Of a DNA stretch of 64,000 nucleotides, positions 38,521-56,464 are shown one piece after another. The stretch covers positions 320,001-384,000 of the forward strand of contig CAVPBK010000009.1 of the NCBI GenBank assembly GCA_963701855.1, in the 5' to 3' direction. Each line of letters begins with the position of its first letter. The first letter of the stretch is position 1. The notes beneath the pieces were generated by a model. That model saw only the letters and a program-made list of their open reading frames with translations. It was not told the DNA's origin and did not search any database. The stretch is from Nitrospirota bacterium. Its GTDB lineage: Bacteria; Nitrospirota; Nitrospiria; Nitrospirales; Nitrospiraceae. The translations under genes and the position numbers were made by a program.

Positions 38521-39690
38521 CTACAATGTTTGCAGCTTGCCGGTGTCCCTCGTGTCGTAACCCCCGAGCGCCTTGATCTCTGCGCGAAACGAGCGGCTGA
38601 CGATAGTGTCAAACAGGTTGGCCAGCGTTGGATGGGACTTCAGATAGGCTTTGGGAACCACGAGGTCATATCGAGCGGCTTGAAGCGGCACAAAATCGAG
38701 GCCAAAGAGTTGTGCTGCAGACCGGATCCCAATCCCGACATCAGCTTGATGATTTGTGATGGTCCTAGCCACTTCGAAATGAGACGACACGGTTCTCTCG
38801 TACCCTCGTACTTGATTCGGATCGATCCTCGCCGCACGCAACCGCTGATCCAGCAACAGCCTGGCCCCAGCTCCCTCTTCTCGATTCACAAGTGTGATGT
38901 TAGGATCGGCTACATCGCTGACTGCACGGATAGACTTGGGATTACCTGCTCGAACGAGCAAGCCCTCTTCCCAGGTCGCAAACGTGACGACTTCATAGTT
39001 TGAACCTTTCAGCGCACGTCGGAGGAACGGCAGGTTTGATTCCCCGGTCGTCGGGTCAAAAAGATGCAGGCCTGCGACATGAACCTCGCCCTGCTGCAAA
39101 GCCCGAAGCGCCGCCGTGCTCCCCATTGTCCAGCCCACGATGGAGGTCTGATCCTTCCGCTGATGCAAATGCGCGCCGACGAGAAAGATCGCGGGATCAC
39201 AACCAGCGACAGAAATTTCCTGTTCAATCGCCTGACAATCGCGCGAGAGGTTTACTCGCACCATGGCACCCGATGCCTGACCATGGACATCCGTCGCGTA
39301 GCCATCGGCAGCCACCGTATACGAAAGCGCCTCACCCAATTCTGAGACGGGTCGCACGATCATACGGGTCCCTACCCTGGCCACCTTCACACGAATCGTC
39401 GAGATCTTCTCATCGCGCTGAGGGAAACCCCCGATCAGTTTCCCTTCAATGGCATCATGCGCCTCTGCAAGACTGAAGAGATCTTCCACGCGACAGCCCA
39501 ACACAGCAGCCATTCGAAGCGCCACTGCGGTGGTGGGTAAGTAGAGGTGAGATTCGATTGCCGAGACGGCCTGCCTGGTGATTCCGGATTTTCCGGCAAG
39601 TTCACCCTGTGAAAGACCTTGAGTGACTCGAATTCGTTTTAGATGATTCTGGAAATGGTCCGTAGATTCCGCTCGGTGAGCCTGTCCCAT
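38521..39690 (-). CDS. XRE-HTH plus PBP-like (molybdate-binding) transcriptional regulator
   Basis: LSQGELAGKSGITRQAVSAIE; AGCDPA, GSTAAL, HVAGLH, NREEGAGAR. Confidence 0.88.
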   Translation of the reverse strand: MGQAHRAESTDHFQNHLKRIRVTQGLSQGELAGKSGITRQAVSAIESHLYLPTTAVALRMAAVLGCRVEDLFSLAEAHDAIEGKLIGGFPQRDEKISTIRVKVARVGTRMIVRPVSELGEALSYTVAADGYATDVHGQASGAMVRVNLSRDCQAIEQEISVAGCDPAIFLVGAHLHQRKDQTSIVGWTMGSTAALRALQQGEVHVAGLHLFDPTTGESNLPFLRRALKGSNYEVVTFATWEEGLLVRAGNPKSIRAVSDVADPNITLVNREEGAGARLLLDQRLRAARIDPNQVRGYERTVSSHFEVARTITNHQADVGIGIRSAAQLFGLDFVPLQAARYDLVVPKAYLKSHPTLANLFDTIVSRSFRAEIKALGGYDTRDTGKLQTL

Positions 39691-39843: not shown

Positions 39844-39872
39844 TTGACAATATAGATTGACTTAGTTATAAT
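39844..39872 (+). promoter_or_regulatory. Consensus sigma70 promoter
   Basis: TTGACA(39844)-17 bp-TATAAT(39867). Confidence 0.85.
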
Positions 39873-39887
39873 ATTAAATCATTAATC

Positions 39888-40964
39888 ATGACCGGAATAA
39901 TAGGAATTAAAATAGTGCTTACACTTATCCAGCGGTTTCACTATCAAAAGCTCTTCTTGAGCTCGCTTGTCGTCGTCCTCCTCCTGACAGCGACCACGGT
40001 TCCCTCTCCGTCCTCAGCACTGGATTGGGTGCCGACTGAGGAGGAGATCAAGAAGTATCGCAAGAGCTGGAATCCCCTGTCCCACGGCCCTGTTCTCCTC
40101 CAGGCAGTCGATGTACAACCGAAAGGGCAGCTTTCAATTCGAGAATTCCTTTTCTCACAAATCGGAGAGAGCAGCTTCGGCAATCACCTCAGCTTTGCGA
40201 CTGACAGCAAAAACGGCCCAGTTCATCTCTACCAGGTGTCGCCCTCCGTCAATGCTTCCTACGGACTGACCAATCATGTCGAATTAGGTGTCGCACTTTC
40301 GATGAATTCGTTCTGGGCCACCCAAAACGGACAGAGCACGAGTTCGACCGGCGTAGGCGACACCTCGCTCATCATGAAGTACCGGCCGATCATCCAGGAC
40401 CCTGAAAGCTGGCGCCCTTCCCTTACCCATTACACGCAAGTTGTACTACCCACCAGCCGTTGGGCCGATGCAGAGAAACCACCTGGGGGGTTCACGCCCC
40501 TCGGACGACTTCCCAGTACGCGATTTGGCGAATATGGGCTGACGCAAGGGCTTATGACGCGAAAGAACCTCGAGCCCATTCGCATCAGCGCAGCCGTGTT
40601 TTATACCTACGCCGCACCCGGAGAGAACGGCGGACAGAACACCTACACCGGCGACATAGTCAACACGCGCCTGATCTATGAGCACATACTCAATGACAAG
40701 AACGGGTTCGGGTACAACATCGAAGTCAGCACCTTGCACGGGCTTACCTGGCGGGCGGACGGACACGACATCAACGCAGGACAGAGAAACGGCTTTACGA
40801 TTATCGGTGTGGAGCCTGCGCTTCAATGGAACTTTTCTCAAAACTGGTTGGTCGCCGTCGGCTGTCTGTTTACTGTTGCAGGCCAGAATGCCACCAATTC
40901 CACCTATCCAAATCTGTCTGTCTTTTGGATGTGGGACAAGAGTGGAAAGATTACCATGCGATAG
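39888..40964 (+). CDS. Exported / outer-membrane beta-barrel-like protein (SphA/MetA-pathway-like); start may be GTG 39916 region or later
   Basis: Signal-like segment, YGLTNHVELG, TGVGDTSLIMKY. Confidence 0.65.
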   Translation: MTGIIGIKIVLTLIQRFHYQKLFLSSLVVVLLLTATTVPSPSSALDWVPTEEEIKKYRKSWNPLSHGPVLLQAVDVQPKGQLSIREFLFSQIGESSFGNHLSFATDSKNGPVHLYQVSPSVNASYGLTNHVELGVALSMNSFWATQNGQSTSSTGVGDTSLIMKYRPIIQDPESWRPSLTHYTQVVLPTSRWADAEKPPGGFTPLGRLPSTRFGEYGLTQGLMTRKNLEPIRISAAVFYTYAAPGENGGQNTYTGDIVNTRLIYEHILNDKNGFGYNIEVSTLHGLTWRADGHDINAGQRNGFTIIGVEPALQWNFSQNWLVAVGCLFTVAGQNATNSTYPNLSVFWMWDKSGKITMR

Positions 40965-40996: not shown

Positions 40997-41179
40997 ATGG
41001 GAAGTACAGAGCAATCAGATCGGCAGGACCATCAAACAATCGAGCACGCGATTCGACTCGCACTCAGAGGCATCCGCTTTGGATCCGTTGAAATCATCGT
41101 TCACGATTCCAAAGTCGTGCAGATTGAGCGCAAGGAGAAGACACGTTTTGACGGCGAAGGTTCTCCGTCCACGCGCTGA
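40997..41179 (+). CDS. YezD/OscA (DUF2292) small protein
   Basis: IRFGSVEIIVHDSKVVQIERKEKTRF. Confidence 0.9.
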   Translation: MGSTEQSDRQDHQTIEHAIRLALRGIRFGSVEIIVHDSKVVQIERKEKTRFDGEGSPSTR

Positions 41180-41228
41180 GGTCAGGATGATTCGTCACAG
41201 CTATTGTCGTTGCTAAAGGAGAACAACG

Positions 41229-41305
41229 GGCCGTCCAGATGACTGGAGGCCAAGACCGACTGTTTCAATCGTCAAATTGAGAACTGACCGGACCACCGGA
41301 GGTTC
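41229..41305 (+). ncRNA. Tandem hairpin, candidate cis-regulatory RNA
   Basis: GGCC-GT-CCAG-ATGA-CTGG-A-GGCC (41229-41251) and GAACT-GA-CCGG-ACCA-CCGG-A-GGTTC (41281-41305). Confidence 0.55.
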
Positions 41306-41326
41306 ACATGTCACGGAGGGAGCGAC

Positions 41327-42970
41327 ATGAGAATTTCCGGTGTGTGGTTTCTGGCAATTGCACTGCTCACGCTGCTGGCAGGCCTGCCGCTACAGGCTCG
41401 GGCGGTGGAAGAAGGCCAGCTTCAGAAGAAAGACGGCCGATGGGAGTATCTGCCGAGTGAAGACCCCGGCCTCAAGTATCTACTCCTCAAGGGAATCATT
41501 ACCCAAGATGAGTACGACAAGGGGCTTAAGACCTTGGAGACCAGAGAACGGATCGTGAAACCGAACTTCAACATCGACGTCAACAACGGCTTGAATATCC
41601 GCGTCGGCTCGAAATTCATGCTCAAAATGCGGCTGCTCACCCAGGTGCGCTACAGCTACAGTACCTTTAATAATGCCTGGGGGACTGTCGGAGACTCGAG
41701 GAACGAAGAAATTCTGGGAGGCCAGGTCGAATTTCGAGCTTTTAAACGCCAGAGTAATTCGAGTCAGTTTTCGGTTCCCCGGGCCCAACTCCAGTTCCTG
41801 GGGTTCGCCTTCGATCCCGACCTTCGCTACAACGTGTCTTTGCAGATGGATTCAACGACATATAACCAAGAAGGCGGTAATGGAAGAGCCACCCTCCAAG
41901 ATGCGTACATCTCTTCCTGGCATATCCCATGGGCAACCGCCCAGTTCGGCCAGCAACGGGTCTGGTTCAATCGCGCCTTGATCAGTTCTTCGGCCACGTC
42001 CACGTTCGCCGACAACATGATCGTGCAGAATGTGTTCGCCTCCAACCTTCAGAGCAGTCGTGATGTCGGGATCAACATCCTGAGCGATGAGGATCAATAC
42101 AAATTCAACTATGCCTTTGGCATTTGGGGAGGCGTCGGGGCGAATCTCGATCGGGACGGCACCGCTGTCAGCCAAAGGGTGCTGCCCCCTACCGGAACTC
42201 CAGGAGCGCCTAATTCTGGGACAACCAGAACTTACAACTACGACACCCGATTCATGAGCGGCGAATTAATGTATACGGCCCGGGTGCTGTACAAAATTGC
42301 CGGCAATCCGGGGTATGGGCAGGGCGACATCCTGAACTCCCGCACACTGCAATCTGCCATCGCCTTCGGGTACGCGTACGACCCAGGTCAGAACTATCTG
42401 AGTGCCACACGCTCCGATATTGTCGATCGCGCATACCGCCAGGCAGTGGCCAAAGCCATGAACGGCCGACTCCTTGGCGGAGGTATCTACGATTTTCAGA
42501 CCTATGAAACGGATTTCATTGCGAAGTACCAAGGCTGGTCGCTCCAAACAGAAGGGTACTACAGACACCAACGGGTACGGAACAAGGATGCCGGTACCCT
42601 AGCATTCGACAACGGAACGATCCCGACGAGCCCGCTCGCCGTAGGTCCCCCGGTGGATCTCGGCCAAGCCTGGGGCTGGTACGTGCAAGTCGGCAAGTAC
42701 ATCATTCCCAGGAAGCTCGAACTGGCCGTTCGGTATGGAGTACTGGATCCGTCCACCAAACAAAAAGACGATCTGACCAAAGAGTTCGGCGCCGCCATCA
42801 ACTATAGCTTTGACGGCACCTACAACAATCGGCTCATCATCGACTACTCCAACATCACTATGGGAAGCGGCGGGCGCGCACCGGACCGGTTCCCGTTCGA
42901 GAATCAACCGGGATTCGGTCGCGATCTCGTCGAAAACCGCATCAATGTGCAGTACCAGTTCTATTTCTAA
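41327..42970 (+). CDS. OprO/OprP-like anion-selective porin (paralog of 35065-36885)
   Basis: Signal peptide, KGIITQDEYD, GQQRVWFNR, SRDVG, C-terminal YQFYF. Confidence 0.82.
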   Translation: MRISGVWFLAIALLTLLAGLPLQARAVEEGQLQKKDGRWEYLPSEDPGLKYLLLKGIITQDEYDKGLKTLETRERIVKPNFNIDVNNGLNIRVGSKFMLKMRLLTQVRYSYSTFNNAWGTVGDSRNEEILGGQVEFRAFKRQSNSSQFSVPRAQLQFLGFAFDPDLRYNVSLQMDSTTYNQEGGNGRATLQDAYISSWHIPWATAQFGQQRVWFNRALISSSATSTFADNMIVQNVFASNLQSSRDVGINILSDEDQYKFNYAFGIWGGVGANLDRDGTAVSQRVLPPTGTPGAPNSGTTRTYNYDTRFMSGELMYTARVLYKIAGNPGYGQGDILNSRTLQSAIAFGYAYDPGQNYLSATRSDIVDRAYRQAVAKAMNGRLLGGGIYDFQTYETDFIAKYQGWSLQTEGYYRHQRVRNKDAGTLAFDNGTIPTSPLAVGPPVDLGQAWGWYVQVGKYIIPRKLELAVRYGVLDPSTKQKDDLTKEFGAAINYSFDGTYNNRLIIDYSNITMGSGGRAPDRFPFENQPGFGRDLVENRINVQYQFYF

Positions 42971-43010
42971 ACGCATGCTGAACGTTATCACGATGACCAG
43001 GAGGTTCTTT

Positions 43011-43832
43011 ATGACACGCCCAAGTGTTCTGTTGAGAAGTCTATTGTTCCTTAGTGTCTTGACCACAACCGTGTGGACCGCGCCGCCTGTGCAGGCGGCG
43101 CCTGAGACCGTCACGATCGCGGCTGCCAACAGCTTGAGGGAGGCCTTTCGACAAATACTCCCGCTCTTCGAAGCGCACAATAAGGACATCAATGTGCGAG
43201 TTATCTACGGGCCCTCTCAAACCCTCAGCAAGCAAATCGAAGAAGGCGCACCGATCGATGTGTTCCTGCCTTCGCAGGTTGAAGAAATCGACCAACTCGA
43301 GGAAAAAGGGCTCGTCATTCAAGGCACAAGACGTGTCTATGCCGGTACTTCGTTGGTCCTGATCGCCGGCACTGAGCTCCCGGCGCCAATCGCGTCGGTC
43401 CAGGATCTTCGCACAACTCTGATCCGGTACATTGCCATCGGCGACCCGAAAACCTCGTCGGTGGGAAAAGTAGCGGCTCAGTATCTCAAGTACAGCAAGC
43501 TCGACTCCCAACTCAAGTCGCAACTTGTCTATGGCGAGCATTCGCGAGCCGTCCTGGACCTGGTCGCCAAGGGCGAAGCCGATCTCGGCATCGTCTACCG
43601 CACAGACGCCGTATCGAATAAGAAGATCCGTATTCTCGACGAGGCCCCGGTGGACTCGCATTCACCAGTCCGCTACGGAGTCGCTGCAGTCTGGACCGCA
43701 AAGAACATCTCGGGCGCAGGAGATTTCATCAATTTTCTGGGGAGACCCCAGATCCAAACGCTCTTGCAAGACTACGGCTTCGATCGCATCGCCGAGTCGT
43801 CCGGCGTCGCTCAAAGACGGGAGGGACAATAA
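43011..43832 (+). CDS. ModA-like substrate-binding protein (non-canonical)
   Basis: AAANSL, GPSQTL, GAPIDVF, IAIGDP, GEADLGIVYRTDA; AGGAGG RBS. Confidence 0.85.
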   Translation: MTRPSVLLRSLLFLSVLTTTVWTAPPVQAAPETVTIAAANSLREAFRQILPLFEAHNKDINVRVIYGPSQTLSKQIEEGAPIDVFLPSQVEEIDQLEEKGLVIQGTRRVYAGTSLVLIAGTELPAPIASVQDLRTTLIRYIAIGDPKTSSVGKVAAQYLKYSKLDSQLKSQLVYGEHSRAVLDLVAKGEADLGIVYRTDAVSNKKIRILDEAPVDSHSPVRYGVAAVWTAKNISGAGDFINFLGRPQIQTLLQDYGFDRIAESSGVAQRREGQ

Positions 43833-44554
43833 TGAATCGCCACCAATACAATTTGACGCGTGGGTCGGCATGGCCCCTGCGCGCACTGTTCCTCATCGTC
43901 GGTCTCTCCATCGCCGCCGGTTGCGCGAGCCAACCTATCTCGCCATCGAGGACGGTCTACGAGGCTGGGTTGAATACGGTCCGGTTGGAGCAGGACCCTG
44001 ACTCCACGTCCAATGCGCATCCTGCCACGTTGACGGCAACTGAAGTCGGCACGTTGCTCCGGGGGGTCCGCGCATCGGAGCGGCGGAACATCGTTCACCG
44101 CCTCATTTTCGGCCAAGCTGATCAAACCAGGGCATTCCGGAAAGAAGAGATCGCCGTGCTGGCGTTGCCTCTTTCAACAGCGCTCTCTCTGGCTGAGCCG
44201 ACAGAACGTGTGTACTTCAACTTGAGTCATGCCACGGATCAGGGAGATCAGGAAACCACCACGGGCTGGATCTCCATCCAAGGGCCGATTCTGCACCTGA
44301 TCATCAGCGCCGTACACACCAGGCATAGCCCCGGTCCCGATATCAGCAAGTATGACCGTCAACTGCCGAACATTCCGGAGGCCTCGGCATTGTATGACGT
44401 GACGTTCGAGCCGGAGTATTATCTAGCCAAGGTGAGTTCGTCGCCCCGTTTCTGGGCGCCGGATCAGCGGGAAGAGTTGCAGATTCTATATCAGGATGCG
44501 CTTGCCGGGTTGACCGTTCAGCCCGCCCCAGAGCGCGAAGGAAAGAAGCCTTAG
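43832..44554 (+). CDS. Conserved lipoprotein
   Basis: Lipobox AAGC; NAHPATLT...LLRG, RVYF, TTGW; translationally coupled (TAATG). Confidence 0.82.
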   Translation: MNRHQYNLTRGSAWPLRALFLIVGLSIAAGCASQPISPSRTVYEAGLNTVRLEQDPDSTSNAHPATLTATEVGTLLRGVRASERRNIVHRLIFGQADQTRAFRKEEIAVLALPLSTALSLAEPTERVYFNLSHATDQGDQETTTGWISIQGPILHLIISAVHTRHSPGPDISKYDRQLPNIPEASALYDVTFEPEYYLAKVSSSPRFWAPDQREELQILYQDALAGLTVQPAPEREGKKP

Positions 44555-44582
44555 TCACAGCCGTGAGTGGTTGGCGCCGAGC

Positions 44583-44613
44583 GAATGGCGGCAGGAATGT
44601 CCTGCTGCCATTC
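44583..44613. other. Intergenic 13-bp stem-loop
   Basis: GAATGGCGGCAGG-AATGT-CCTGCTGCCATTC; no T tract. Confidence 0.55.
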
Positions 44614-44634
44614 ATCGAAGAGGCAAAGAGGTCA

Positions 44635-44949
44635 ATGAGTATCCTTGTTGTCGGTGGCGATTCAGCTGAGATGTTCCGGCAGCAGACCGGCGGCGGGCAT
44701 GGATACGTCGAGCATTGGAGCGGTCGTAAGAACCGCGACATGGCAAAGTCCATTCCCAAAGATACGGAAGCAGTGGTCGTCGTGCTGGATCGGGTGAGCC
44801 ATGGACTGGCTCGCAAGGTCCGAACCGAAGCGACACGTCGCGGCCTTCCCGTCTTCTTTCAAAAGCGAGCACGGCATGCGAGTCCGATGGATCATGACCC
44901 CATGGATTTGGCCCAATGGCTGAGCAAGACCTCGGAGATCAAGAAGTAA
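44635..44949 (+). CDS. DUF2325-family protein
   Basis: MSILVVGGD, HWSGR, VVLDRVSHGL, GLPVFF. Confidence 0.8.
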   Translation: MSILVVGGDSAEMFRQQTGGGHGYVEHWSGRKNRDMAKSIPKDTEAVVVVLDRVSHGLARKVRTEATRRGLPVFFQKRARHASPMDHDPMDLAQWLSKTSEIKK

Positions 44950-45039
44950 CTCTGTTCAATAAATGATCGGCCACGTAATCGATGGTCGAATGACAACACT
45001 TGATTGTAGAAGTCCATTACGAATAGAAAGGACCATCCC

Positions 45040-46062
45040 ATGATGTTGAAGCCGTTCGTTCTCACGCTTGCGCTCCTGACCGGAGCCTTGGGATTCACGT
45101 CGTCTATCCAGGCGGCAGGATCCGTTTCCATCCTGAACGTCTCATACGATCCGACACGCGAACTCTACCAGGAGTTCAATGTGGCGTTCGCCAAACACTG
45201 GTTGGCCAAGACGGGCCAGACCGTCAAAGTCTTGCAATCCCACGGAGGATCGAGCAAGCAGGCACGAGCTATCATCGATGGCTTGGAGGCCGACGTCGTG
45301 ACGCTGGCGCTGGCCTACGATATCGACGCCATCTCCGAAAAGGCCGGGCTGCTTCCAGCAAACTGGCAGAGTCGTCTTCCCAACAACAGCGCACCCTACA
45401 GCTCGACGATCACGTTCCTGGTCCGCAAGGGCAATCCCAAGGGCATCAAGGATTGGAACGACCTGGTCAAACCAGGAATCTCCGTCATCACCCCAAACCC
45501 CAAGACCTCCGGTGTCGCCCGCTGGAACTACTTGGCTGCATGGGGCTATGCTCTGAAACAATCCGGCGGCGATGAAGCCAAAGCGCAGGAATTTGTCCGG
45601 CAACTTTTTAAGAACGTGCCGGTGCTCGACTCGGGCGCCCGCGGCGCCACAACCACCTTCGTGGAGCGGGGCATCGGCGACGTTCTGATTAACTGGGAAA
45701 ACGAAATCTTGCTGAGCACCAAAGGCTCGGGCAAAGACAAGTTCGATATCGTCGTGCCGCCAATCAGCATCCTGGCAGAGCCGACGGTCAGCGTCGTAGA
45801 CAAGATCGTGGACAAGCGAGGCACCAGGCAAGTAGCTCAAGCCTATCTGGAATATCTCTACTCTGAAGAAGGCCAGGACATTGCCGGCAAAAACAACTAC
45901 CGCCCGCAGCTTCCATCAGTTGCCGCCAAATATGCTACGAATTTCCCGTCGGTGGAGCGGTTCACGCTACAAGAGGTCTTCGGCAACTGGCAGAAGGCGC
46001 ACAAGGCGCACTTTGCCGATGGCGCCAGCTTCGATCAAATCTATTTGCAGGGCGCAAAGTAG
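45040..46062 (+). CDS. sbp: Sulfate ABC transporter substrate-binding protein
   Basis: [31 protein letters not shown]. Confidence 0.96.
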
Positions 46063-46169
46063 CGGCGATGAGACACACTTCGCCGATGGTAAGACATGTG
46101 ATCAGCTGTACTGTTGACTCCCAACAGCCTGGATAATCGTTCCCTGCAATCGGAGGCGGTGAGAAATTC

Positions 46170-47006
46170 ATGGCTATGGTGTTGAAACAACCCAGTGTCC
46201 TTCCGGGATTCGGTCTGACTCTGGGATTTGCATTGTTCTATTTCAGCCTGATCGTCTTGATCCCCCTCAGCGGTCTCGTCGTCAAGACGACCACACTGAG
46301 CTGGGAACAATTCTGGCACACGGTGACGGAGCCGCGTGCGCTTGCCTCCTACCAGCTCACATTCGGCGCCTCATTTCTGGGGGCTTTGATCAACGGCTTC
46401 TTCGGATCGGTGGTGGCGTGGGTCCTTGTGCGATACCGCTTTCCCGGGCGCTCGATCGTGGACGCGCTCGTGGATCTGCCCTTTGCCCTGCCGACCGCCG
46501 TCGCCGGAATTGCCTTGACCGCCATCTATTCGTCGAATGGATGGATCGGACGCTATCTCGAACCGCTGGGTCTCAAAGTCGCCTTTACGCCCCTGGGTGT
46601 CCTGGTCGCACTGACCTTCATTGGATTGCCGTTCGTGGTGCGAACGGTGCAACCGGTGCTACAGGATCTGGACAGGGAGGTGGAGGAAGCCGCCACTACG
46701 CTGGGAGCCAATCGGTGGCAAACAATCAGGGCGGTGATTATGCCTGAACTGTGGCCTGCCTTGTTGACCGGCGTGGCAATGGCATTCGCCCGCTCCGTCG
46801 GAGAATATGGCTCGGTCATCTTCATCGCCGGCAATATGCCTCTCAAATCGGAGATCACTCCGCTGTTGATCATGACCAAACTCGAACAGTACGATTACGC
46901 CGGAGCCACGGCGCTGGGAGTCGTCATGCTCGTGGTGTCGTTTATCCTCGCCCTGATGATCAATCTCATACAATGGTGGAGCGGCAGACGCCACACCGCT
47001 CGTTAG
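46170..47006 (+). CDS. cysT: Sulfate ABC permease CysT
   Basis: DLPFALPTAVAGIAL, GEYGSVIFIAGN. Confidence 0.96.
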   Translation: MAMVLKQPSVLPGFGLTLGFALFYFSLIVLIPLSGLVVKTTTLSWEQFWHTVTEPRALASYQLTFGASFLGALINGFFGSVVAWVLVRYRFPGRSIVDALVDLPFALPTAVAGIALTAIYSSNGWIGRYLEPLGLKVAFTPLGVLVALTFIGLPFVVRTVQPVLQDLDREVEEAATTLGANRWQTIRAVIMPELWPALLTGVAMAFARSVGEYGSVIFIAGNMPLKSEITPLLIMTKLEQYDYAGATALGVVMLVVSFILALMINLIQWWSGRRHTAR

Positions 47007-47018
47007 AAAGAGAAGAGT

Positions 47019-47927
47019 ATGTCGACAGAGACCGTTGCCAGAGTAAGAAACGAAGAGTGGAACGCCTCATTGACCAGCGAAGGCGCCTTGGTTCGATGGG
47101 CACTGATTGTCGCGGCTCTCGGATACCTGACGCTCTTCCTGTTTATCCCCCTCGCAGCTGTGTTTACCGAAGCGCTGAAGAACGGACTTGAAGGCTACTT
47201 CGCCTCATTCACGGACCCGGATACCCTGTCGGCGATTCGCCTGACCTTCCTCGCCGCATCCCTGGCCGTTCCACTCAACCTCATGTTCGGCGTCTCTGCA
47301 GCCTGGGCCATCGCCAAATTCGAATTCGTCGGTAAACAGATTCTCATCACGCTCATCGACATCCCGTTGGCCGTGTCCCCCGTCATCTCGGGATTGATTT
47401 ACGTGCTGCTCTTCGGAGCGCAGGGCTGGGTGGGCCCCTGGCTGGCCGAACACGACATCAAGATCATCTTCGCCCTGCCGGGCATCGTGCTCGCCACCAC
47501 CTTTGTCACCGTTCCATTTATCGCGCGCGAGCTGATCCCATTGATGCAATCACAGGGACGAGAGGAAGAAGAGGCGGCGCTCACGCTGGGCGCGTCGGGA
47601 TGGCACACGTTTATTCGAGTCACTCTCCCGAATATCAAGTGGAGCCTGCTCTATGGGGTCATTCTCTGCAATGCACGGGCGATGGGAGAATTCGGAGCGG
47701 TCTCCGTCGTGTCAGGCCATATTCGGGGGCTCACCAATACGATGCCGCTTCATGTCGAGATCCTGTACAACGAGTATAACGCCGTCGGGGCCTTCGCGGT
47801 GGCCTCGCTCCTCACCTTGTTGGCCATTGTGACGCTTGTCGTCAAAACAGTCATCGAACGGAAATCCGCTTCATCACGATCGACTCATGATCCTGCATCA
47901 ACCACGCAGCCAGGGAGTCCATCGTGA
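47019..47927 (+). CDS. cysW: Sulfate ABC permease CysW
   Basis: [23 protein letters not shown]. Confidence 0.96.
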
Positions 47928-49006
47928 GTATCCAGGTCGATCACGTCACCAAACGATTCGGCAGCTTCACCGTCCTGAATGACGTGAGCCTTCACGTACA
48001 GACTGGAGAACTCGTGGCGCTCCTCGGTCCATCCGGTTGCGGCAAGACCACCCTGCTCAGAATTCTGGCTGGATTGGAGAGGCCCGACCAGGGACGAATT
48101 CTCTTGCATGGCGACGAGGTAACGGAACAGCGCATCACCGACCGGCGCGTGGGATTCGTGTTCCAGCATTACGCGTTGTTCCGGCATATGACCGTCGCAG
48201 AAAATGTCGCATTCGGACTGACCGTGCTTCCCCGCCCGCAACGGCCTTCTCCTGACCAGATCCAGAAGAAAGTCCATGACTTGCTGTCATTGGTCCAGCT
48301 GCAGGCGATGGCCGACCGCTATCCAAATCAGCTTTCCGGAGGGCAACGTCAACGCGTGGCCTTGGCCAGAGCGCTGGCCGTGGAACCGAAAATGCTTCTG
48401 CTTGATGAACCCTTTGGCGCACTGGACACCAAAGTCAGAAAGGAACTGAGACGCTGGCTCCGGCGACTCCATGACGAATTGCACATTACAAGTATCCTAG
48501 TCACGCATGACCAGGAAGAAGCCTTAGAAGCGGCAGACCGTATCGTGGTGTTGAACCAGGGGCATATCGAGCAGATCGGCACGCCGGAGGAAGTCTATGA
48601 ACACCCGGCAACACCGTTCGTGTACCGCTTCCTCGGCGATGTGAACGTGTTTCATGGCCGAATTGCCCACGACGAGACTGCGCACGAAGAGGCGGACGGG
48701 CAACCTCCTGCAGGGAGAGACCCTTCGAACGAACATGAGGTCACCTTTGTCCGTCCCCACGACCTGGAACTCAGCCGAAGCCGGACCACGACGACACAGC
48801 TCGAGGCGACCGTACGATTTGTCATCACAGCCGGATCGCGCGTCCGCCTCGAGCTGGTCTCGAAAAACTCTCCGCAAACCATTGAGGTTGAACTCACCAA
48901 AGAGCGTTATCGCGAGTTACGGCTTCAACAAGGCGATGTGGTCTTTGTGCACCCGAAACAACTACAAGTATTCAAAATGCCCGGCCCCTTATCTGGGAGG
49001 CCGTGA
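47924..49006 (+). CDS. cysA: Sulfate ABC ATPase CysA
   Basis: [34 protein letters not shown]. Confidence 0.96.
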
Positions 49007-49094
49007 TCCGTGTGAGTACGCATTTCACCGATGCGGGTGCCGGCCGACAGCAGCAATCCGCAACGAGGTAACTGCAACTCGTAGAGCTAAAGTC

Positions 49095-50171
49095 ATGAGT
49101 ATTGAAACACCTCTCCAGATCGTGACTGCGGACCCGCACACACTGGCCCTCTCTATCCGGGCCAGTTGCCTGGTCTTTGAAGACCCTGCGTCCAGAGCAC
49201 TACTGAAACGTGTGCAACGGATCGCTCCGAGCAATGCGACGGCCCTCATCATCGGCGAGACCGGCACCGGCAAGGAGCTGATCGCGCGCCACATCCACGA
49301 ACTGAGCGGTCGCCGATCCGGCCCGTTCGTGGCGTTCAATTGCGCCGCGATCAGCGAATCCTTGATGGAAAGCGAACTCTTCGGCCATGAGCGCGGCGCC
49401 TTTACCGGCGCCGTGGCCGCCAAGGCCGGCTGGTTCGAAACCGCGCAGGGGGGCTCGTTGTTCCTGGATGAGATCGGCGATCTCCCACTCGTGCTTCAGG
49501 CCAAACTGCTGCGGGTCATCCAAGAGCGGGAAGTCATCCGTGTCGGATCGCGCCAGTCCATCGCCATCGATGTACGATTGATTGCGGCGACAAACGTGAA
49601 CCTGGATGACGCAGTGGCGGCAGGGCGATTCCGCGAGGATCTCTACTACCGGCTTCATGTGGCGCCGGTACCGCTTCCTCCGCTGCGGGAGCGTCCCGGA
49701 GATATTCTGCCGCTGGTTCACCACTTTCTGAAGATCTACGGAACTCGTCTCGGATTCGCCAGTGCCGACCTCGCTCCCGACGCGGTGCAGCAATTGCTCG
49801 ATTATCCTTGGCCAGGCAACATTCGCGAGCTGGAAAACACCGTCCATCATGCGCTGCTCGTCTGCCCCGATCACACCGTGCGCCCCGAAGATCTGCGCCT
49901 CCCCGCTCCACGATCCCCACAACCGCCCGCACCGGCAGCGGGCTCGACGCAGTCATTGGAAGCGCTCCTTCGTACACTCTTCAACGGCGACAGATCCAAT
50001 CTCTATCGTCGAATCGATGAAACGGTGATTCGCACCGCATACGAGTATTGCGAACGGAACCAGCTGCGGACCGCCCGACTTCTGGGCATCAGCCGCAATA
50101 TCGTGCGCGATCGCCTGAAACAGTACGGACTGCTCAATGTAGAAAAGCAACGGTATTGCCATGATAGCTAA
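49095..50171 (+). CDS. Sigma54-dependent activator without a sensory domain (SfnR-like)
   Basis: Very short N-terminus, GETGTGKE, GAFTGA, WPGNIREL, C-terminal NQLRTARLLGISRN HTH. Confidence 0.88.
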   Translation: MSIETPLQIVTADPHTLALSIRASCLVFEDPASRALLKRVQRIAPSNATALIIGETGTGKELIARHIHELSGRRSGPFVAFNCAAISESLMESELFGHERGAFTGAVAAKAGWFETAQGGSLFLDEIGDLPLVLQAKLLRVIQEREVIRVGSRQSIAIDVRLIAATNVNLDDAVAAGRFREDLYYRLHVAPVPLPPLRERPGDILPLVHHFLKIYGTRLGFASADLAPDAVQQLLDYPWPGNIRELENTVHHALLVCPDHTVRPEDLRLPAPRSPQPPAPAAGSTQSLEALLRTLFNGDRSNLYRRIDETVIRTAYEYCERNQLRTARLLGISRNIVRDRLKQYGLLNVEKQRYCHDS

Positions 50172-50814: not shown

Positions 50815-51740
50815 CACAGCACGTGCATCCGAACATCACAAAACAGATCGGCCACACACCCCTGGTTCGCCTGAACCGACTCTCTCCGGCAGGCGGCGCG
50901 ACCATCAATGCGAAGGTTGAATTCTCCAATCCCGGCGGGAGCGTCAAGGATCGGATCTGCCTGAACATGATCGATGAAGCGGAACGATCAGGCCGGCTCA
51001 AGCCAGGCGCCACTATCGTCGAACCGACCAGCGGCAACACAGGCATCGGCCTCTCGCTGGTCGCAGCCGTGCGAGGCTATCGAGTGGTTCTGGTCATGCC
51101 GGACAGCATGAGCGAAGAGCGAGTGAGTCTCCTGTCCTCGTATGGGGCGGAGTTGGTCCTGACCCCTGGGTGGGAAAGCATGAGGGGTTCCATCAAAGAA
51201 GCCGAACGCATCGTCGCCCAGCATCCCTCGTATTTCATGCCGGATCAATTCTCCAACCCGGCCAATCCTGACGCCCACCGGAAAACCACGGCCATCGAAA
51301 TCTGGGACGCATTGGGAGGGAAGTTCGACGCCTTCGTCGCGGGGGTCGGGACCGGAGGGACCATCACCGGCTGCGGAGAAGTCTTCAAGGTGCGCAATCC
51401 CACCATCCAGATCGTGGCCGTGGAACCGAGTGGATCCCCTGTCCTCTCGGGTGGAGACTCCGGTCCTCACAAGATCCAGGGCATCGGAGCGGGGTTCATC
51501 CCCGAAGTCTTGAATCGCAAGATTCTCGATCGCGTGATAGCCGTCACCGACGATGACGCGTATCAGACATCCAAACTCCTTGCGAAGCAGGAAGGACTGC
51601 TTGTCGGGATTTCGGCCGGGGCCAACGTGTGGGCGGCCCAACAGGTCGCCAGGGAACTCGGTCCCGGCAAGAGTGTGGTCACCGTGCTCTGCGATACGGG
51701 TGAGCGGTATATCAGTATGGAGAAGTATTTTAATATCTGA
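50811..51740 (+). CDS. cysK: Cysteine synthase
   Basis: NPGGSVKDR, EPTSGNTG, GTGGT, HKIQGIG. Confidence 0.95.
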   Translation: MTQHVHPNITKQIGHTPLVRLNRLSPAGGATINAKVEFSNPGGSVKDRICLNMIDEAERSGRLKPGATIVEPTSGNTGIGLSLVAAVRGYRVVLVMPDSMSEERVSLLSSYGAELVLTPGWESMRGSIKEAERIVAQHPSYFMPDQFSNPANPDAHRKTTAIEIWDALGGKFDAFVAGVGTGGTITGCGEVFKVRNPTIQIVAVEPSGSPVLSGGDSGPHKIQGIGAGFIPEVLNRKILDRVIAVTDDDAYQTSKLLAKQEGLLVGISAGANVWAAQQVARELGPGKSVVTVLCDTGERYISMEKYFNI

Positions 51741-51765
51741 CCCCTCATTAAACGGCTTCTATTCT

Positions 51766-52588
51766 ATGAACTTCACCGATGACCAAATCACCAGGTACAG
51801 CCGACATATCTTGCTTCCCGAAGTGGAGGGCAAGGGGCAGAAGAAACTCGCTCAGGCTCGTATTCTGATCGTTGGAGTCGGCGGTCTCGGCTCGCCGGCG
51901 GCGCTCTACCTGGCTGCGGCGGGCGTCGGCACCTTGGGCCTGATCGACAGCGACGTCGTGGACCTGTCGAATCTCCAACGACAGATCATCCATTACACAG
52001 CCGATGTGGGACGGTCCAAAGTGCTCTCCGCCAAGGAAAAAATCCAAGCGTTGAACCCAGAACGTCACGGCGGTACTGCATGAAGACCGTTTCATGGCCA
52101 GGAACGCTCTGGAACTGGTTCGCGACTATTCGGTGGTGATCGACGGAGTGGATAATTTCCCGGCGAAATTCCTCATCAACGACGCCTGCTATTTTTCCGG
52201 GATACCGCTCGTGCACGGCGGGATCCTACGCTTCGATGGACGTGTCTCTACCATCATCCCCAAGCACTCAGCCTGTTACCGGTGTGTGTTCACACAACCG
52301 CCACCGCCCGGTCTGGTGGCCAGTTGCCAGGAAGCCGGCGTGCTCGGAGTCTTGGCGGGCATCATAGGAACGATCCAAGCAACCGAAGCGTTGAAATTGA
52401 TCTTAGGCATCGGCCACCCCTTGACCGATCGGATGCTGGATGTTGATGCCCGACGCATGCGGTTCCGGGAAATCCCCGTCACACGCAATCCCCGGTGCCC
52501 GCTCTGCGGGGACCAGCCGACCATCACAGAACTGACCGATCACGAACCGGTAGTTTGTCAGGTGCGGCCTCCTGTTGCCATCGGGTGA
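51766..52588 (+). pseudogene. moeB: MoeB/ThiF/HesA adenylyltransferase with a +1 frameshift near 52062
   Basis: RYSRHILL, GVGGLG, SNLQRQ, shift (GAAC for GAC), then DGVDNF, CYRC, CPLC; may be a sequencing error. Confidence 0.85.
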
Positions 52589-52732: not shown

Positions 52733-53704
52733 ATGAGTGAACGTACCAATGTTTCGGACCATCAGAGTCTCAGCGCCCAAGCGGCGCGCAATCTGGCGAC
52801 TGCCACGGTCACCGTCCCGCAGATGACGGAAATCACTCCGCGGTGGCTCCATAAACTGCTGCCATGGGTGGATGTGGACGGCGGCGTCTATCGTCTCAAC
52901 CGCGTGGCCAAGGCCGCGAAGGGGGAGCCGGCCAACGAATTCGGCGAAGCCACAGTCGATCTCTTGACCGTAGATAGCGGCGAGCCGAAACTGCCGACCA
53001 CCTTCGTCGATTACGAGTTGCACCCACGTGAGTATCACCTGAGCACGATCCAAACAGTGCTGCAGACGCATACACGCGTGACCGATCTGTACAGCAATCG
53101 TATCGACCAATTGCGTCAACAAGTACGCCTGACGGTGGAAGGTGTCAAGGAACGCGAGGAATGGGAGATCATTAATCACGCTCAGTTCGGTCTTTTAAGG
53201 GAGGTCGCGCCGGTACAGCGCATCAACACACGCAAAGGCACACCGACTCCTGACGATCTGGACGAACTCCTGAGTCTGGTCTGGAAAAAACCCGCCTTCT
53301 TCCTCGCGCATCCCAAAGCGATCGCCGCGTTCGGACGCGAAGCCACCAGGCGCGGTGTACCCCCGCCCACCGTACACCTGTTCGGCTCGCCCTTCATCAC
53401 CTGGCGTGGCATTCCGTTGATCCCGAGCAACAAACTGGAGGTCGATAAAGCAGGCAAGACCAGTATCCTCTTGTTGCGCGTCGGCGAGGCAGAACAAGGC
53501 GTCGTCGGCCTGCAAAAGGCGGGCGTGACAGGCGAGCTCGAAGCCGGCCTCTCCGTCAGATACATGAGCACCAATGAACACGGCATTGCGTCGCATCTGG
53601 TGACACGCTACTTCTCGACGGCAGTGCTGACCGAGGACGCGATCGCGCGCCTCGATAACGTGTCGATCAAGTTCTATCACGAATATGTTTATCCAAAGGG
53701 CTAA
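52733..53704 (+). CDS. Family 2A encapsulin shell protein (SrpI-like)
   Basis: SLSAQAARNLA, ITPRWL, GGVYRLNR, TFVDYE.HPREY, TRVTDLY, PTPDDLDELL; followed by a desulfurase. Confidence 0.93.
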   Translation: MSERTNVSDHQSLSAQAARNLATATVTVPQMTEITPRWLHKLLPWVDVDGGVYRLNRVAKAAKGEPANEFGEATVDLLTVDSGEPKLPTTFVDYELHPREYHLSTIQTVLQTHTRVTDLYSNRIDQLRQQVRLTVEGVKEREEWEIINHAQFGLLREVAPVQRINTRKGTPTPDDLDELLSLVWKKPAFFLAHPKAIAAFGREATRRGVPPPTVHLFGSPFITWRGIPLIPSNKLEVDKAGKTSILLLRVGEAEQGVVGLQKAGVTGELEAGLSVRYMSTNEHGIASHLVTRYFSTAVLTEDAIARLDNVSIKFYHEYVYPKG

Positions 53705-53707
53705 CCT

Positions 53708-55447
53708 ATGACACCGACAACACAAGACGTCACCGCTGGCAGGAATGATCCATTCGATACCACATTAATCGCGCAGCTGGCGAATGAGTTCTACTCTGAA
53801 TCAACCGGCAGCCCCTCGCTGCCGGCATGGATTCCGGCGCTCCCATTGGGCGCCCCTAACGGATCCGAACTCTCCGGAGGCTATCCGTCTGCCAGTTCCA
53901 CCACCCATCCTCCGGTCCATTCCGGACTGCAACCAGACACGGCACACCCGCCGGCAACGCCCGGCACGCTGTCCGGCGAACATGCTCCCGGCTCCGAGGA
54001 CACCTACCCCTTTGGCGAACCGCGCTGCAACGGGGACAGGTTCGGCCAGCGCCACCAAGCCACACCGTCAGCGAACATACCGCAGCGGAATGACTCTCCG
54101 AACATCGCAACCCCCCTCCCCGGCTACAAGGAAAATCTCTTTGCCCCGGATTATTATTTCCTGCGCCATGTCGACTCGGCCACCCAGTCATCCATCCCGA
54201 GTGCGCCGGTTTCCCGCTTCAGTCCGACCTTGTCCGTTCTGGATATTGAAGCCATCCGGCGGGATTTCCCCGCGCTGCATCAATCGGTCCATGGCAAGCC
54301 GCTCATCTGGCTGGATAACGCAGCCACCACGCAGAAACCACAGAGTGTGATCGACGCCATCGCCCAGTTCTACAGCCGGGATAACTCGAATATCCACCGG
54401 GCGGCACATACCTTGGCCTTCCGCGCCACGGAGTTGTACGAAGAAGGACGGAAGAAGGTGCAGCGCTTCCTTGGGGCGGCCGATCCCAAAGAGATCGTCT
54501 TTGTCCGTGGGACCACGGAAGCCGTCAACCTGGTGGCACAGACCTACGGTCGCACCCATGTCGGCCAAGGCGATGAAATACTTCTGACGACCATGGAGCA
54601 CCACGCGAACATCGTGCCCTGGCAGATGCTCGCCGAACAGACAGGAGCCGTGCTGCGCGTCGCGCCGATCAACGACGCCGGTGAATTGATCCTCGATCAA
54701 TTTGCCGCACTGCTGACCTCGCGCACGAAACTCGTGGCCGTCACGCAAGTCTCGAATGCCCTGGGTACGATCAATCCGGTCGAACAGCTCATTGCCATGG
54801 CTCATGCTCACGGCGTGCCGGTCCTCGTGGACGGCGCGCAATCGGCGCCGCACATACCGGTGAACGTCCAGGCGATGGATTGCGATTTTTTCGTGTTCTC
54901 CGGCCACAAAATCTTCGGGCCGACCGGGATCGGCGTGCTGTACGGCAAGGCGGCGCTGTTGGAAGAGATGCCGCCCTGGCAAGGCGGCGGCAATATGATT
55001 CAGGACGTGACCTTCGAAAAGACTACGTATCAAGGCATTCCGCAAAAATTCGAGGCGGGCACCCCGAACATCGCCGGGGTGGTCGGCTTAGGGGCTGCCA
55101 TCGATTATCTGAACCAGGTGGGCATACCAGCCATTGCGGCCTACGAGCATGAGCTGTTGTCCTATGCGACACACACCCTGTCCTTGGTTCGCGGCCTCCG
55201 CCCGATCGGGACCGCCGCCACCAAGGCCAGCGTCCTCTCGTTCGTCATGGACGGCATGTCCAACGAGTCGGTCGCTCGCCATCTGGATCAGCACGGTATC
55301 GCGGTTCGAGCCGGACACCACTGCGCACAACCGACTGTGCGCCGGTACGGGTTGACCGGAACGGTCCGTCCGTCTCTGGCGTTTTACAACACGCCGGATG
55401 AAATCGACACGTTGGTGAGCGCCTTAAGCCAGATCAGGAAGAACTGA
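53708..55447 (+). CDS. Encapsulin cargo cysteine desulfurase (SufS-type) with a disordered N-terminal targeting region
   Basis: IAQLANEFY motif, about 170 aa Pro/Ser-rich, LDNAATTQKP, SGHK, RAGHHCA. Confidence 0.93.
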   Translation: MTPTTQDVTAGRNDPFDTTLIAQLANEFYSESTGSPSLPAWIPALPLGAPNGSELSGGYPSASSTTHPPVHSGLQPDTAHPPATPGTLSGEHAPGSEDTYPFGEPRCNGDRFGQRHQATPSANIPQRNDSPNIATPLPGYKENLFAPDYYFLRHVDSATQSSIPSAPVSRFSPTLSVLDIEAIRRDFPALHQSVHGKPLIWLDNAATTQKPQSVIDAIAQFYSRDNSNIHRAAHTLAFRATELYEEGRKKVQRFLGAADPKEIVFVRGTTEAVNLVAQTYGRTHVGQGDEILLTTMEHHANIVPWQMLAEQTGAVLRVAPINDAGELILDQFAALLTSRTKLVAVTQVSNALGTINPVEQLIAMAHAHGVPVLVDGAQSAPHIPVNVQAMDCDFFVFSGHKIFGPTGIGVLYGKAALLEEMPPWQGGGNMIQDVTFEKTTYQGIPQKFEAGTPNIAGVVGLGAAIDYLNQVGIPAIAAYEHELLSYATHTLSLVRGLRPIGTAATKASVLSFVMDGMSNESVARHLDQHGIAVRAGHHCAQPTVRRYGLTGTVRPSLAFYNTPDEIDTLVSALSQIRKN

Positions 55448-55483
55448 ACCTGAGCGCCGAGCCGTTCGAACACATAGGTGACC

Positions 55484-56464
55484 ATGGCCATCAATCCGAT
55501 TCCACAATCAGACATCGCGTTAACCACATGGAATATCGACCGCGTAGTCGCTGAACTCCGGCAATCGCGTGAAGTCGCGCACAACGTGAGGCATCAGGGC
55601 CTCATCCGGGAGTTGCCGTCGCGGAAAGCCTTGCTCGGCGTCCTGGACGGGTTGTGTGCCGTCTTGTTTCCGACCCATTATGGCCGCTCGGACTTGAACG
55701 AGTCGAACATCGATTATTTTGTCGGCAATCAACTGAACCTGACATTGAACCTGTTACAAGATCAAGTTCGCCGAGGGCTGCTGTTTGTCTCTGACCAAGA
55801 CGAGCCAATGGACGCGGACGCAAATCGCGCCGCCAGCGAGATGACCACTAAGTTTGCGGCACAGTTGCCGTCCATTCGCGCACGACTCTTCACCGATTTG
55901 CAAGCCGCCTATCAAGGCGATCCGGCGGCTACCAGCGCGTCGGAGATTCTGCTCTGCTATCCCGGCATGACCGCGATCATCTACTATCGCCTGGCGCATG
56001 CGCTCTATGAGTTGGGAGCGCACCTGCCGGCGCGATTGATCTCGGAGATCGCCCATTCCACGACGGGGATCGACATTCATCCGGCCGCGAACATCGGTGG
56101 ATACTTTTTTATCGATCACGGTACCGGGGTGGTCATCGGGGAAACGACGATCATCGGCGAGCGGGTCCGGCTCTATCAAGCCGTCACCCTCGGCGCGAAA
56201 CGCTTCCCTGAAAATGAGCAGGGCGTGCTCATCAAAGGCGCCACCCGTCATCCCATCGTCGAAGACGACGTCGTCATCTACGCCGGCGCGACGATCTTGG
56301 GCCGCATCACGATCGGCAAAGGGGCGATCATCGGCGGTAATGTGTGGTTGACCCAGAGCGTGCCGCCCGGAAGCAATGTCATCCAGGCACAGATGCGCCA
56401 GAGCAGTACGTTGACGATCGAGCCCAAACAGGTGAGCCAGACAATCTGGCAACCCAGTATCTAA
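55484..56464 (+). CDS. cysE: Serine O-acetyltransferase (EpsC/SrpH type)
   Basis: GDPAA, TGIDIHP, FIDHGTGVVIGET, RHPIVED. Confidence 0.93.
   Translation: MAINPIPQSDIALTTWNIDRVVAELRQSREVAHNVRHQGLIRELPSRKALLGVLDGLCAVLFPTHYGRSDLNESNIDYFVGNQLNLTLNLLQDQVRRGLLFVSDQDEPMDADANRAASEMTTKFAAQLPSIRARLFTDLQAAYQGDPAATSASEILLCYPGMTAIIYYRLAHALYELGAHLPARLISEIAHSTTGIDIHPAANIGGYFFIDHGTGVVIGETTIIGERVRLYQAVTLGAKRFPENEQGVLIKGATRHPIVEDDVVIYAGATILGRITIGKGAIIGGNVWLTQSVPPGSNVIQAQMRQSSTLTIEPKQVSQTIWQPSI

Follow-up and report, generated by a model that had tools for sequence, protein, structure and literature searches.

What is the function of two look-alike hairpins that lie between a yezD gene and the gene that follows it in a Nitrospirota bacterium? 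They occur in a window of 64,000 nucleotides (G000:C9:320001-384000; the window is the whole stretch of DNA analyzed, from a host genome of 4.3 Mb). An original prediction, made from the letters of this window, viewed them as a structurally selected cis-element, possibly bound by the small protein YezD, that controls a downstream sulfur operon. Our analysis indicates with high confidence that the two hairpins are a real cis-regulatory structured RNA. That they form the conserved core of an undescribed structured mRNA element, a candidate new Rfam family, is well supported; this element sits in sulfur-starvation operons, typically 3′ of yezD/oscA and 5′ of a gene for an outer-membrane channel. 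As the best explanation of the whole we tentatively favor a translational switch with YezD as the most likely effector, a reading that might still fail in one of its parts.

Both hairpins have the architecture that had been described for them, and their starts are 52 nt apart. Hairpin 1 (41229..41251, + strand; GGCC-G-U-CCAG-AUGA-CUGG-A-GGCC) consists of an outer stem GGCC/GGCC, a bulged G, a U-A pair, an inner stem CCAG/CUGG and the loop AUGA. Hairpin 2 (41281..41305, + strand; GAACU-GA-CCGG-ACCA-CCGG-A-GGUUC) has an outer stem GAACU/GGUUC, an internal loop with GA opposite A, an inner stem CCGG/CCGG and the loop ACCA. Between them lies an A-rich linker (41252..41280, +), which is poorly conserved across lineages. 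Both are located inside the 147-nt gap that separates yezD (40997-41179, +) from the gene for a 547-aa exported protein (41327-42970, +), whose ribosome-binding site (RBS), GGAGGGAG, occupies 41315-41322 and whose AUG is at 41327. Isolated folding energies are -15.1 kcal/mol for hairpin 1 and -12.4 kcal/mol for hairpin 2, the pair probability of hairpin 1 is 0.98-1.0, and the 171-nt leader folds better than shuffled sequences (z = -2.44; 2 of 200 shuffles were equally good). No loop-loop complementarity between the two hairpins was found by eye. Their common core, CCRGANNACYGGAGG, has two exact matches in the window, both at this site, and three in the genome, compared with one for the reversed control. 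With up to two mismatches, eight matches were found in the window and 6.4 expected; since such loose matches are at chance level, the signal lies in the exact pair and its conservation. The third exact match in the genome (C4:232918-232932) was rejected as another element, as it is without the flanking stems. The 3-kb stretch that contains this lone look-alike (G000:C4:231418-234432) has no open reading frame (ORF) of at least 90 aa and no Rfam match.

Covariation was assessed with a covariance model, R1, built from 56 distinct sequences aligned with MAFFT (alignment A2), and with an alignment of 77 instances fitted to this model (A3). In A3, standard pairs were present in 84.7% of cells, compared with 25-48% when partners were slid by 1-3 columns, two-sided changes occurred in 13 of 18 pairs, and 119 compensated cells were counted versus 36.5 +/- 4.9 in shuffles, a value reached by 0 of 500; because A3 is fitted to R1, its pair counts lean towards structure, and its sequences are related to each other. 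The covariation score was 0.274 and did not exceed 0.061 when partners were slid. In A2, which was not fitted to the model, 89.3% of cells were paired versus 24-49% when slid, with covariation chiefly in the outer stem of hairpin 1, a stem that covaries across phyla. The inner stems are only apparently invariant, because R1 matches, found free of any sequence pattern, carry compensated changes in them: CCAA/UUGG, CCAU/AUGG, CCGG/CCGG and CCCG/CGGG for hairpin 1, and CCAG/CUGG, UCGG/CCGA and CCCG/CGGG for hairpin 2. Within hairpin 2, column pair 118:125 was GC in 67 sequences, AU in eight and CG in one; pair 110:132 was AU in 25, CG in 18 and GU in 14, and pair 112:129 was UA in 43 and UG in 27. 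Structural selection, which had been proposed from the differing outer stems and a compensatory pair change in the inner stem, is therefore well supported.

Conserved letters are concentrated at a few positions. They comprise the basal two C-G pairs of either inner stem; on the 3′ side, the unpaired A plus the next purine and G (GGA-R-G); the GA on the 5′ side of hairpin 2; and the final A of each loop. The GGA is nearly invariant in the 77 instances (columns 126-128: G77, G74, A76; columns 58-60: G75, G76, A72). Loops come in some 20 to 30 kinds, mostly 4 nt long and of the form RNNA; the linker varies from 17 to 37 nt over the 77 instances, A accounting for 853 of its 1899 letters. The interchange of G-U with A-U and G-C pairs and the strand asymmetry of the conserved letters point to an RNA rather than a DNA operator.

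How widespread is the element, and is it already known? Among 41 related genomes yezD was detected in 10, nine of which had sequence beyond the gene, and both hairpins followed yezD in all nine of these same-genus loci, with varying loops. Of 401 genomes of the order, 32 matched a two-hairpin pattern, against three matches for the reversed control. The 32 belong to a single family and to six of 54 genera; one of them (L015) looks like a chance match inside a coding region. A stricter pattern applied to one genome per species gave 47 loci, mostly from Nitrospira, together with four from Nitrosomonas (one of them N. halophila Nm1), four from Verrucomicrobiota, one from Burkholderiales and one from Omnitrophota; a few of these lie on short contigs of metagenome-assembled genomes labelled otherwise and are possibly mis-binned. 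R1 gave one significant match in the host genome (102.7 bits), the runner-up having 16.2 bits (E = 0.16). A looser one-hairpin pattern had eight matches there and three in the control, the six others being inside ORFs of at least 100 aa or beside none relevant. With R1 and the one-hairpin pattern, no single-hairpin regulon was seen in the host genome. At L126, a locus of genome G543 in which no yezD was found, hairpin 1 is interrupted and the upstream sequence is unrelated, possibly owing to an insertion or a rearrangement.

No match to Rfam 15 was found in 41180-41326 at E <= 10, and no relevant match at E <= 1 in nine loci from five lineages. The element is therefore not mini-ykkC, nadA, sul1 or any S-adenosylmethionine class, and its novelty with respect to Rfam was upheld. 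In the literature searched, no RNA element was described beside yezD/oscA, subscription journals and unopened supplements being places that may hold more.

Linkage to yezD is the most prominent feature of the genomic context. As judged with a YezD hidden Markov model, 65 of the 77 instances have a same-strand yezD directly upstream, with no more than about 125 nt between its end and the motif. R1 matched 58 of 151 genomes drawn from the Nitrosomonadaceae family, in which yezD was present in 80; 50 genomes had both, eight the motif only, 30 yezD only and 63 neither. For these tallies, motif presence in yezD-bearing genomes was counted at E <= 0.001, and two unpublished genomes are included (G492 in both counts, G500 in the yezD count). 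The corresponding draw from the class Verrucomicrobiae (n = 151) had 21 genomes with the motif and 39 with yezD: 21 with both, none with the motif only, 18 with yezD only and 112 with neither. Kin are not independent, and both co-occurrence tables are descriptive only. When Nitrosomonadaceae-family genomes counted as yezD only were sampled with filters off, 13 of 14 had a weaker R1 match (11-22.7 bits) directly 3′ of yezD. Three genomes with two motifs (G434, G458 and G514) hold two yezD genes, each motif-yezD pair being adjacent, and one verrucomicrobial locus (L139, G579) has the order motif-yezD-motif, with motifs at 1501-1620 and 1910-2026. G480 has its tandem motif at a distance of 1 Mb from yezD, and a weak single hairpin (12.7 bits, E = 0.0034) remains with the yezD gene itself.

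A similar association was seen in a draw of 401 Pseudomonadota genomes, 18 of which had yezD. Besides the query's own locus, 17 loci were counted, and R1 matched directly downstream of yezD in 12 of them, five matches being full-length and seven covering hairpin 2 only. In Pseudomonas-like oscA-sbp loci a single unit, GA-CUGG-ACNA-CCRG-AG, is kept a few letters 3′ of the oscA stop codon, and three loci are without it. The enrichment 3′ of DUF2292 genes that had been anticipated is thus present in the same-genus set (9/9), in yezD-bearing genomes of the Nitrosomonadaceae family (50/80) and in the Pseudomonadota (12/17). This linkage, the covariation and the lack of an Rfam match give good support to the proposal of a cis-acting RNA selected for structure.

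The gene downstream of the motif always encodes an exported, channel-like protein, but the families differ and are non-homologous. It belongs to Alginate_exp in Nitrosomonas (about 1e-100), to DUF3034 in Verrucomicrobiota, and to Porin_O_P in Burkholderiales, Omnitrophota and one Nitrospira clade. The 547-aa protein of the window had no match in Pfam or NCBIfam. In a language-model atlas look-up, which is a lead and not an alignment, its nearest clusters were Nitrospirota Porin_O_P/anion-selective porins, and PF07396 was carried by 38% of the members of its own cluster and by 96% in the next one; we consider it a probable anion-selective outer-membrane porin on the basis of this look-up. The original prediction had placed the hairpins between yezD and the RBS of a transporter gene. 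Their position stands, but the reading of the next gene as a transporter subunit does not, given an exported protein of 547 aa with no Pfam match.

How might such an RNA act? The 3′ half of hairpin 2, together with its flank, can pair with the start of the porin gene. In this alternative helix (inverted repeat I1, + strand) 41296-41312 pairs with 41324-41340, placing the RBS in the loop and the AUG in the stem. It is both the minimum-free-energy (MFE) and the centroid fold of the leader, with an energy of -53.9 kcal/mol versus -45.6 kcal/mol when hairpin 2 is enforced, a difference of 8.3, and at equilibrium the pair probability of hairpin 2 in the full leader is 0. The RNAalifold consensus of nine relatives is the same helix, with four compensated pairs; those just 5′ of the AUG are at non-coding positions (UA 4 / CG 4; CG 3 / AU 3). 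Compared with dinucleotide shuffles of the start region, the duplex had z = -4.94 here and z <= -3.1 in 12 of 18 Nitrospiraceae rows. Of the six weaker rows, two have a Porin_O_P-type gene, and in at least two of the four others the choice of start codon is doubtful. In three verrucomicrobial loci in which hairpin 2 is CCAG/CUGG, the early coding region contains UCCAG, versus UCCGG in Nitrospira, at a matching distance. An alignment of 44 sequences made with MAFFT gave hairpin 2 alone in RNAalifold; indels misalign the start region there, and the sequestering helix was not counted in it.

Hairpin 2 is thus conserved across phyla yet disfavored in its own mRNA, which fits the regulated arm of a switch, and the alternative helix is about 8 kcal/mol more stable, so that the default state looks OFF. 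We consider it probable that translation is gated by the alternative helix in Nitrospiraceae; what the sequence supports is that translation initiation is controlled at the porin gene, the first one downstream. In the OFF state, the 3′ half of hairpin 2 would pair with the first porin codons and bury the RBS and AUG. In the ON state, binding of an effector to the bulged hairpins would keep hairpin 2 (41281..41305), the proposed anti-sequestor, closed and so free the start site, and co-transcriptional folding could favor hairpin 2, which is made first. The direction of the switch is inferred, as is the part of YezD: made from the adjacent upstream gene, it would act as effector in the form of a symmetric homodimer, with one hairpin per subunit. 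Three other arrangements were considered and rejected. A terminator or attenuator was not supported, as no terminator-like site was present on the + strand of the yezD-porin intergenic region. An upstream ORF starting at ATG 41308, after the GGAGG of hairpin 2 (a 50-aa frame), differs in frame and length in relatives (8 codons, or read-through in other frames; by eye). Pairing of CCUGA, 5′ of hairpin 2, with the Shine-Dalgarno (SD) sequence in Nitrosomonadaceae was no better than in shuffles.

The YezD encoded in the window is a 60-aa protein and a member of the DUF2292/YezD family (Pfam PF10055; 60.3 bits with a cut-off of 22, E = 1.3e-16, profile positions 3-37 of 37). It scored below the cut-off of the NCBIfam family sulfur_OscA (NF033785; 62.8 versus 85 bits), so it is a family member that does not qualify as an OscA equivalog. 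AlphaFold2 predicted a helix at residues 3-24, a beta-hairpin at 29-36/39-47 and a basic, disordered tail, with a mean predicted local distance difference test score (pLDDT) of 78.7. A symmetric homodimer was also predicted, with an ipSAE score of 0.45 compared with 0.00 for the best of three controls. In its interface, strand 25-38 runs antiparallel to itself, runs agree in 100% of contacts, and the pLDDT of the partner is at least 66. Of 30 proteins solved as same-chain pairs, 20 reached the mark used for dimers, as did one of 23 single chains; these rates hold only roughly here, because a custom alignment was used. The related oscA is called a hypothetical small protein in PMC2996968, which also quotes Viti et al. 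(2009) to the effect that oscA and sbp form one transcriptional unit and that oscA is needed for the sulfur-starvation response of P. corrugata.

YezD is our leading candidate for the effector of the hairpins, a plausible choice about which considerable doubt is in order. It is favored because the linkage persists while the downstream gene is exchanged, because there are two look-alike sites, and because the protein is a predicted homodimer. The confidently predicted small fold with its basic tail and the published requirement for oscA in sulfur starvation also count in its favor. If so, YezD/OscA might, more speculatively, be the founder of a group of very small dimeric RNA-binding regulators, the gene and its bulged-hairpin site making up a portable module.

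Several observations weigh against a switch operated by YezD. Sequence searches linked the protein to no solved structure, and its fold had no significant counterpart (best Foldseek E = 3.5), so that by these comparisons it does not stand out as an RNA binder. Three glutamates are among its invariant residues, of which few are basic. Any two parts of one operon would be expected to be linked, so linkage does not separate binding by YezD from a shared sulfur regulon. The sequestering helix is specific to certain lineages: across 28 Nitrosomonadaceae rows, pairing of the SD/AUG region with either side of hairpin 2 does not exceed that of shuffles (mean z of -0.12 and +0.42, with no row below -1.64), and pairing better than in shuffles occurs in only 18% of 22 verrucomicrobial rows, so that the ON/OFF logic of Nitrospira may not hold elsewhere. 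There are also motifs apart from yezD. In four verrucomicrobial loci yezD is about 3.5 kb upstream on the same contig, in three others it is 2.5-11.5 kb downstream on the same strand, and eight of the 58 motif-bearing genomes of the Nitrosomonadaceae family, with sizes of 1.0-2.8 Mb and completeness not given, show no yezD. Finally, the motif persists with 69.5 bits in G387, a Nitrospiraceae genome that is 100% complete, although the yezD upstream of it looks decayed: PF10055 had no match in this genome, and a remnant, ...GSIELIILDSTSAPIERKGTFH*, lies about 120 nt 5′ of the motif (L014), with no in-frame start and with core residues changed.

Both G387 and the motifs distant from yezD are better explained by a metabolite riboswitch. 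Here the bulged hairpin or hairpins would be the aptamer for a small molecule or ion that signals sulfur status, e.g., O-acetylserine, N-acetylserine, adenosine phosphosulfate or its 3′-phosphorylated form (APS/PAPS), thiosulfate or sulfite; the ligand would close or open hairpin 2 and so set translation of the uptake genes, yezD being merely the usual first gene of the operon. A conserved, covarying core with an expression platform that varies by lineage is the usual layout of riboswitches, tandem look-alike hairpins occur in the classes guanidine-II and NAD+-I, and the generic feature of a conserved covarying structure in untranslated mRNA is present. The motif also precedes transport-related genes of non-homologous families and, in two loci of the Nitrosomonadaceae family (L123 in G480 and L129 in G454), follows a promoter-like region with no adjacent yezD. 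What speaks against an aptamer is that the loops are variable, with about 20 kinds in each hairpin, that a very small internal loop and two C-G pairs offer little for a selective pocket, and that Pseudomonas-like loci keep one hairpin, 70-190 nt from the sbp start, with no platform seen. Moreover, a near-constant yezD neighbor and joint duplication with yezD would be unusual for a riboswitch and are left unexplained by it. On balance we regard a riboswitch as rather unlikely, though as the main rival.

It is more improbable that the hairpins serve another cellular factor, such as CsrA reading GGA, or act as a processing or stability element, e.g., an RNase cut or protection site that lets mRNA levels differ between yezD and the downstream genes. 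Differential mRNA stability is often set between two cistrons, GGA is invariant on the 3′ side of both hairpins, and the host genome carries a single CsrA gene as well as an ANTAR gene away from the locus (contig C4). Sites of CsrA/Rsm proteins expose GGA in a hairpin loop, but here it is part of the stem and internal loop, so these are not CsrA sites by that rule; the ANTAR-type loop pattern is absent, and neither gene is linked to the locus, whereas yezD is. A pure stability hairpin would need neither a sequence conserved over five phyla nor a helix competing over the start codon. A DNA-level operator, in which a dimeric transcription factor reads the palindromes CCAG-N4-CTGG and CCGG-N4-CCGG, might be suggested by the short palindromic inner stems, nearly fixed in sequence in close relatives, and by the sigma-54 activator and helix-turn-helix (HTH) regulator encoded in the cluster. 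Yet G-U pairs occur often and alternate with A-U and G-C pairs, the outer stems covary freely, the conserved flanks (GA 5′, A-R-G 3′, loop A...A) are not symmetric between strands, and the competing helix extends into the coding region. Chance inverted repeats are excluded by the distribution over genomes, and together the operator and chance readings retain hardly any credibility.

Among known systems, the element is closest in logic to the regulator-first operons pyr/PyrR and hut/HutP, and in shape to tandem-hairpin riboswitches. In the PyrR (Bacillus pyr) and HutP (hut) systems, regulator-first operons have protein-binding RNA hairpins in leader or intercistronic regions that act on transcription terminators. 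The likeness lies in a small regulator encoded by an early gene (a putative role for YezD here), RNA sites behind its own gene and two competing folds; in contrast to both, no terminator is present here, the competing helix covers the RBS and AUG, and YezD has no detectable relation to either protein. Guanidine-II (mini-ykkC) and NAD+-I (nadA) RNAs likewise have two similar small hairpins with a variable linker, the second touching the translation start, but no Rfam model matches here. Guanidine-II RNAs have their conserved letters in the loops, whereas the present hairpins have variable loops and conserve an internal loop (GA opposite A) plus two C-G pairs. The analogy with ANTAR dual hairpins drawn in the original prediction holds for the architecture of two tandem hairpins as one regulatory unit and fails in its details: ANTAR targets have hexaloops with fixed A and G, but loops here are of 4 nt (RNNA), there is no terminator, and none of 21 cluster ORFs carries PF03861, whose single genomic copy is on contig C4. 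Nearest in theme is the sul1 motif, a candidate cis-regulatory RNA before genes of sulfate transport and sulfur metabolism whose ligand is unknown; it is a separate family that precedes sul1-type transporters, and the part of its report that describes it mentions no DUF2292 link (Weinberg et al. 2017, PMC5737381).

If YezD is the effector, the YezD module would have been placed, in five or more phyla, before mutually unrelated genes for outer-membrane channels and sulfate uptake, setting their translation in sulfur starvation. Sulfate uptake in bacteria, commonly attributed to control by transcription factors alone, would thereby gain a post-transcriptional level of regulation. A conserved RNA partner would also give YezD/OscA, a widespread sulfur-starvation protein of unknown function, a testable role. 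Carriers of the element include major nitrifiers (Nitrospira and Nitrosomonas) and soil Verrucomicrobia, and it is a well-supported candidate for a new Rfam family whichever effector applies.

Other features of the leader and of the gene cluster were also recorded. Directly 5′ of hairpin 1, an accessory hairpin (41208..41228, +) with the SD-like loop CUAAAGGAGAA is present in the MFE fold. It is confined to relatives within Nitrospira and absent from other phyla, and so lies outside the cross-phylum core; its stem varies in relatives (GUUGU/ACAAC, UGUC/GACA, GUC/GAC) and covaries, in an alignment judged by eye. Loci L123 and L129 share an AT-rich block, AAAATGGATAAG..GAAAT.ATAT, about 100-150 nt 5′ of the motif, which may be a promoter or a regulator site.

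Upstream of the first + strand ORF of the cluster is a sigma-70-type promoter (TTGACA-17-TATAAT; 39844..39872, +), identified by its consensus match alone, with 12 of 12 hexamer letters. The transcript with yezD and the hairpins likely starts at this sequence, downstream of which every sizeable ORF is on the + strand for about 17 kb. Metatranscriptome contigs from RNA libraries of three studies span both hairpins (X1, 41072-41322; X2, 41152-41341; X4, 41210-41341), and X1 alone extends more than 31 letters to both sides of the yezD stop codon, while a further run, X3, contributed no contig; such libraries can contain DNA and contigs reveal no ends, so this coverage does not amount to proof of a transcript. 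The first gene of the cluster, 5′ of yezD, is a 358-aa ORF (39888-40964, +) with no family in Pfam or NCBIfam. Transcribed divergently is a regulator with HTH_3 and PBP_like (oxyanion-binding type) domains (38521-39690, - strand), a candidate transcriptional sensor of the cluster.

Sulfate-uptake genes follow the porin gene and may share its transcript (42810..49006, +; Pfam assignments): two SBP_bac_11 binding proteins, an unknown ORF, DUF2325, two permeases and an ABC ATPase with a TOBE domain. Further 3′ on the + strand are a sigma-54 activator, a DsrE-like protein, a cysteine synthase and a ThiF-like gene in two pieces. The sigma-54 activator ORF (48654-50171), within the cluster, overlaps the cysA-like ORF as listed. 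The ThiF/MoeB-like gene occupies two ORFs (51553-52083 and 52094-52588, +) that cover positions 1-89 and 102-237 of the PF00899 profile, and this could reflect a frameshift, an in-frame stop or a true split. Beyond it, 3′ of the sulfate ABC genes, 52733-56464 (+) encodes an SrpI-type (2A) encapsulin shell, a cysteine desulfurase with a long N-terminal extension and a serine-acetyltransferase-like protein, which looks like a sulfur-starvation encapsulin system attached to the uptake cluster.

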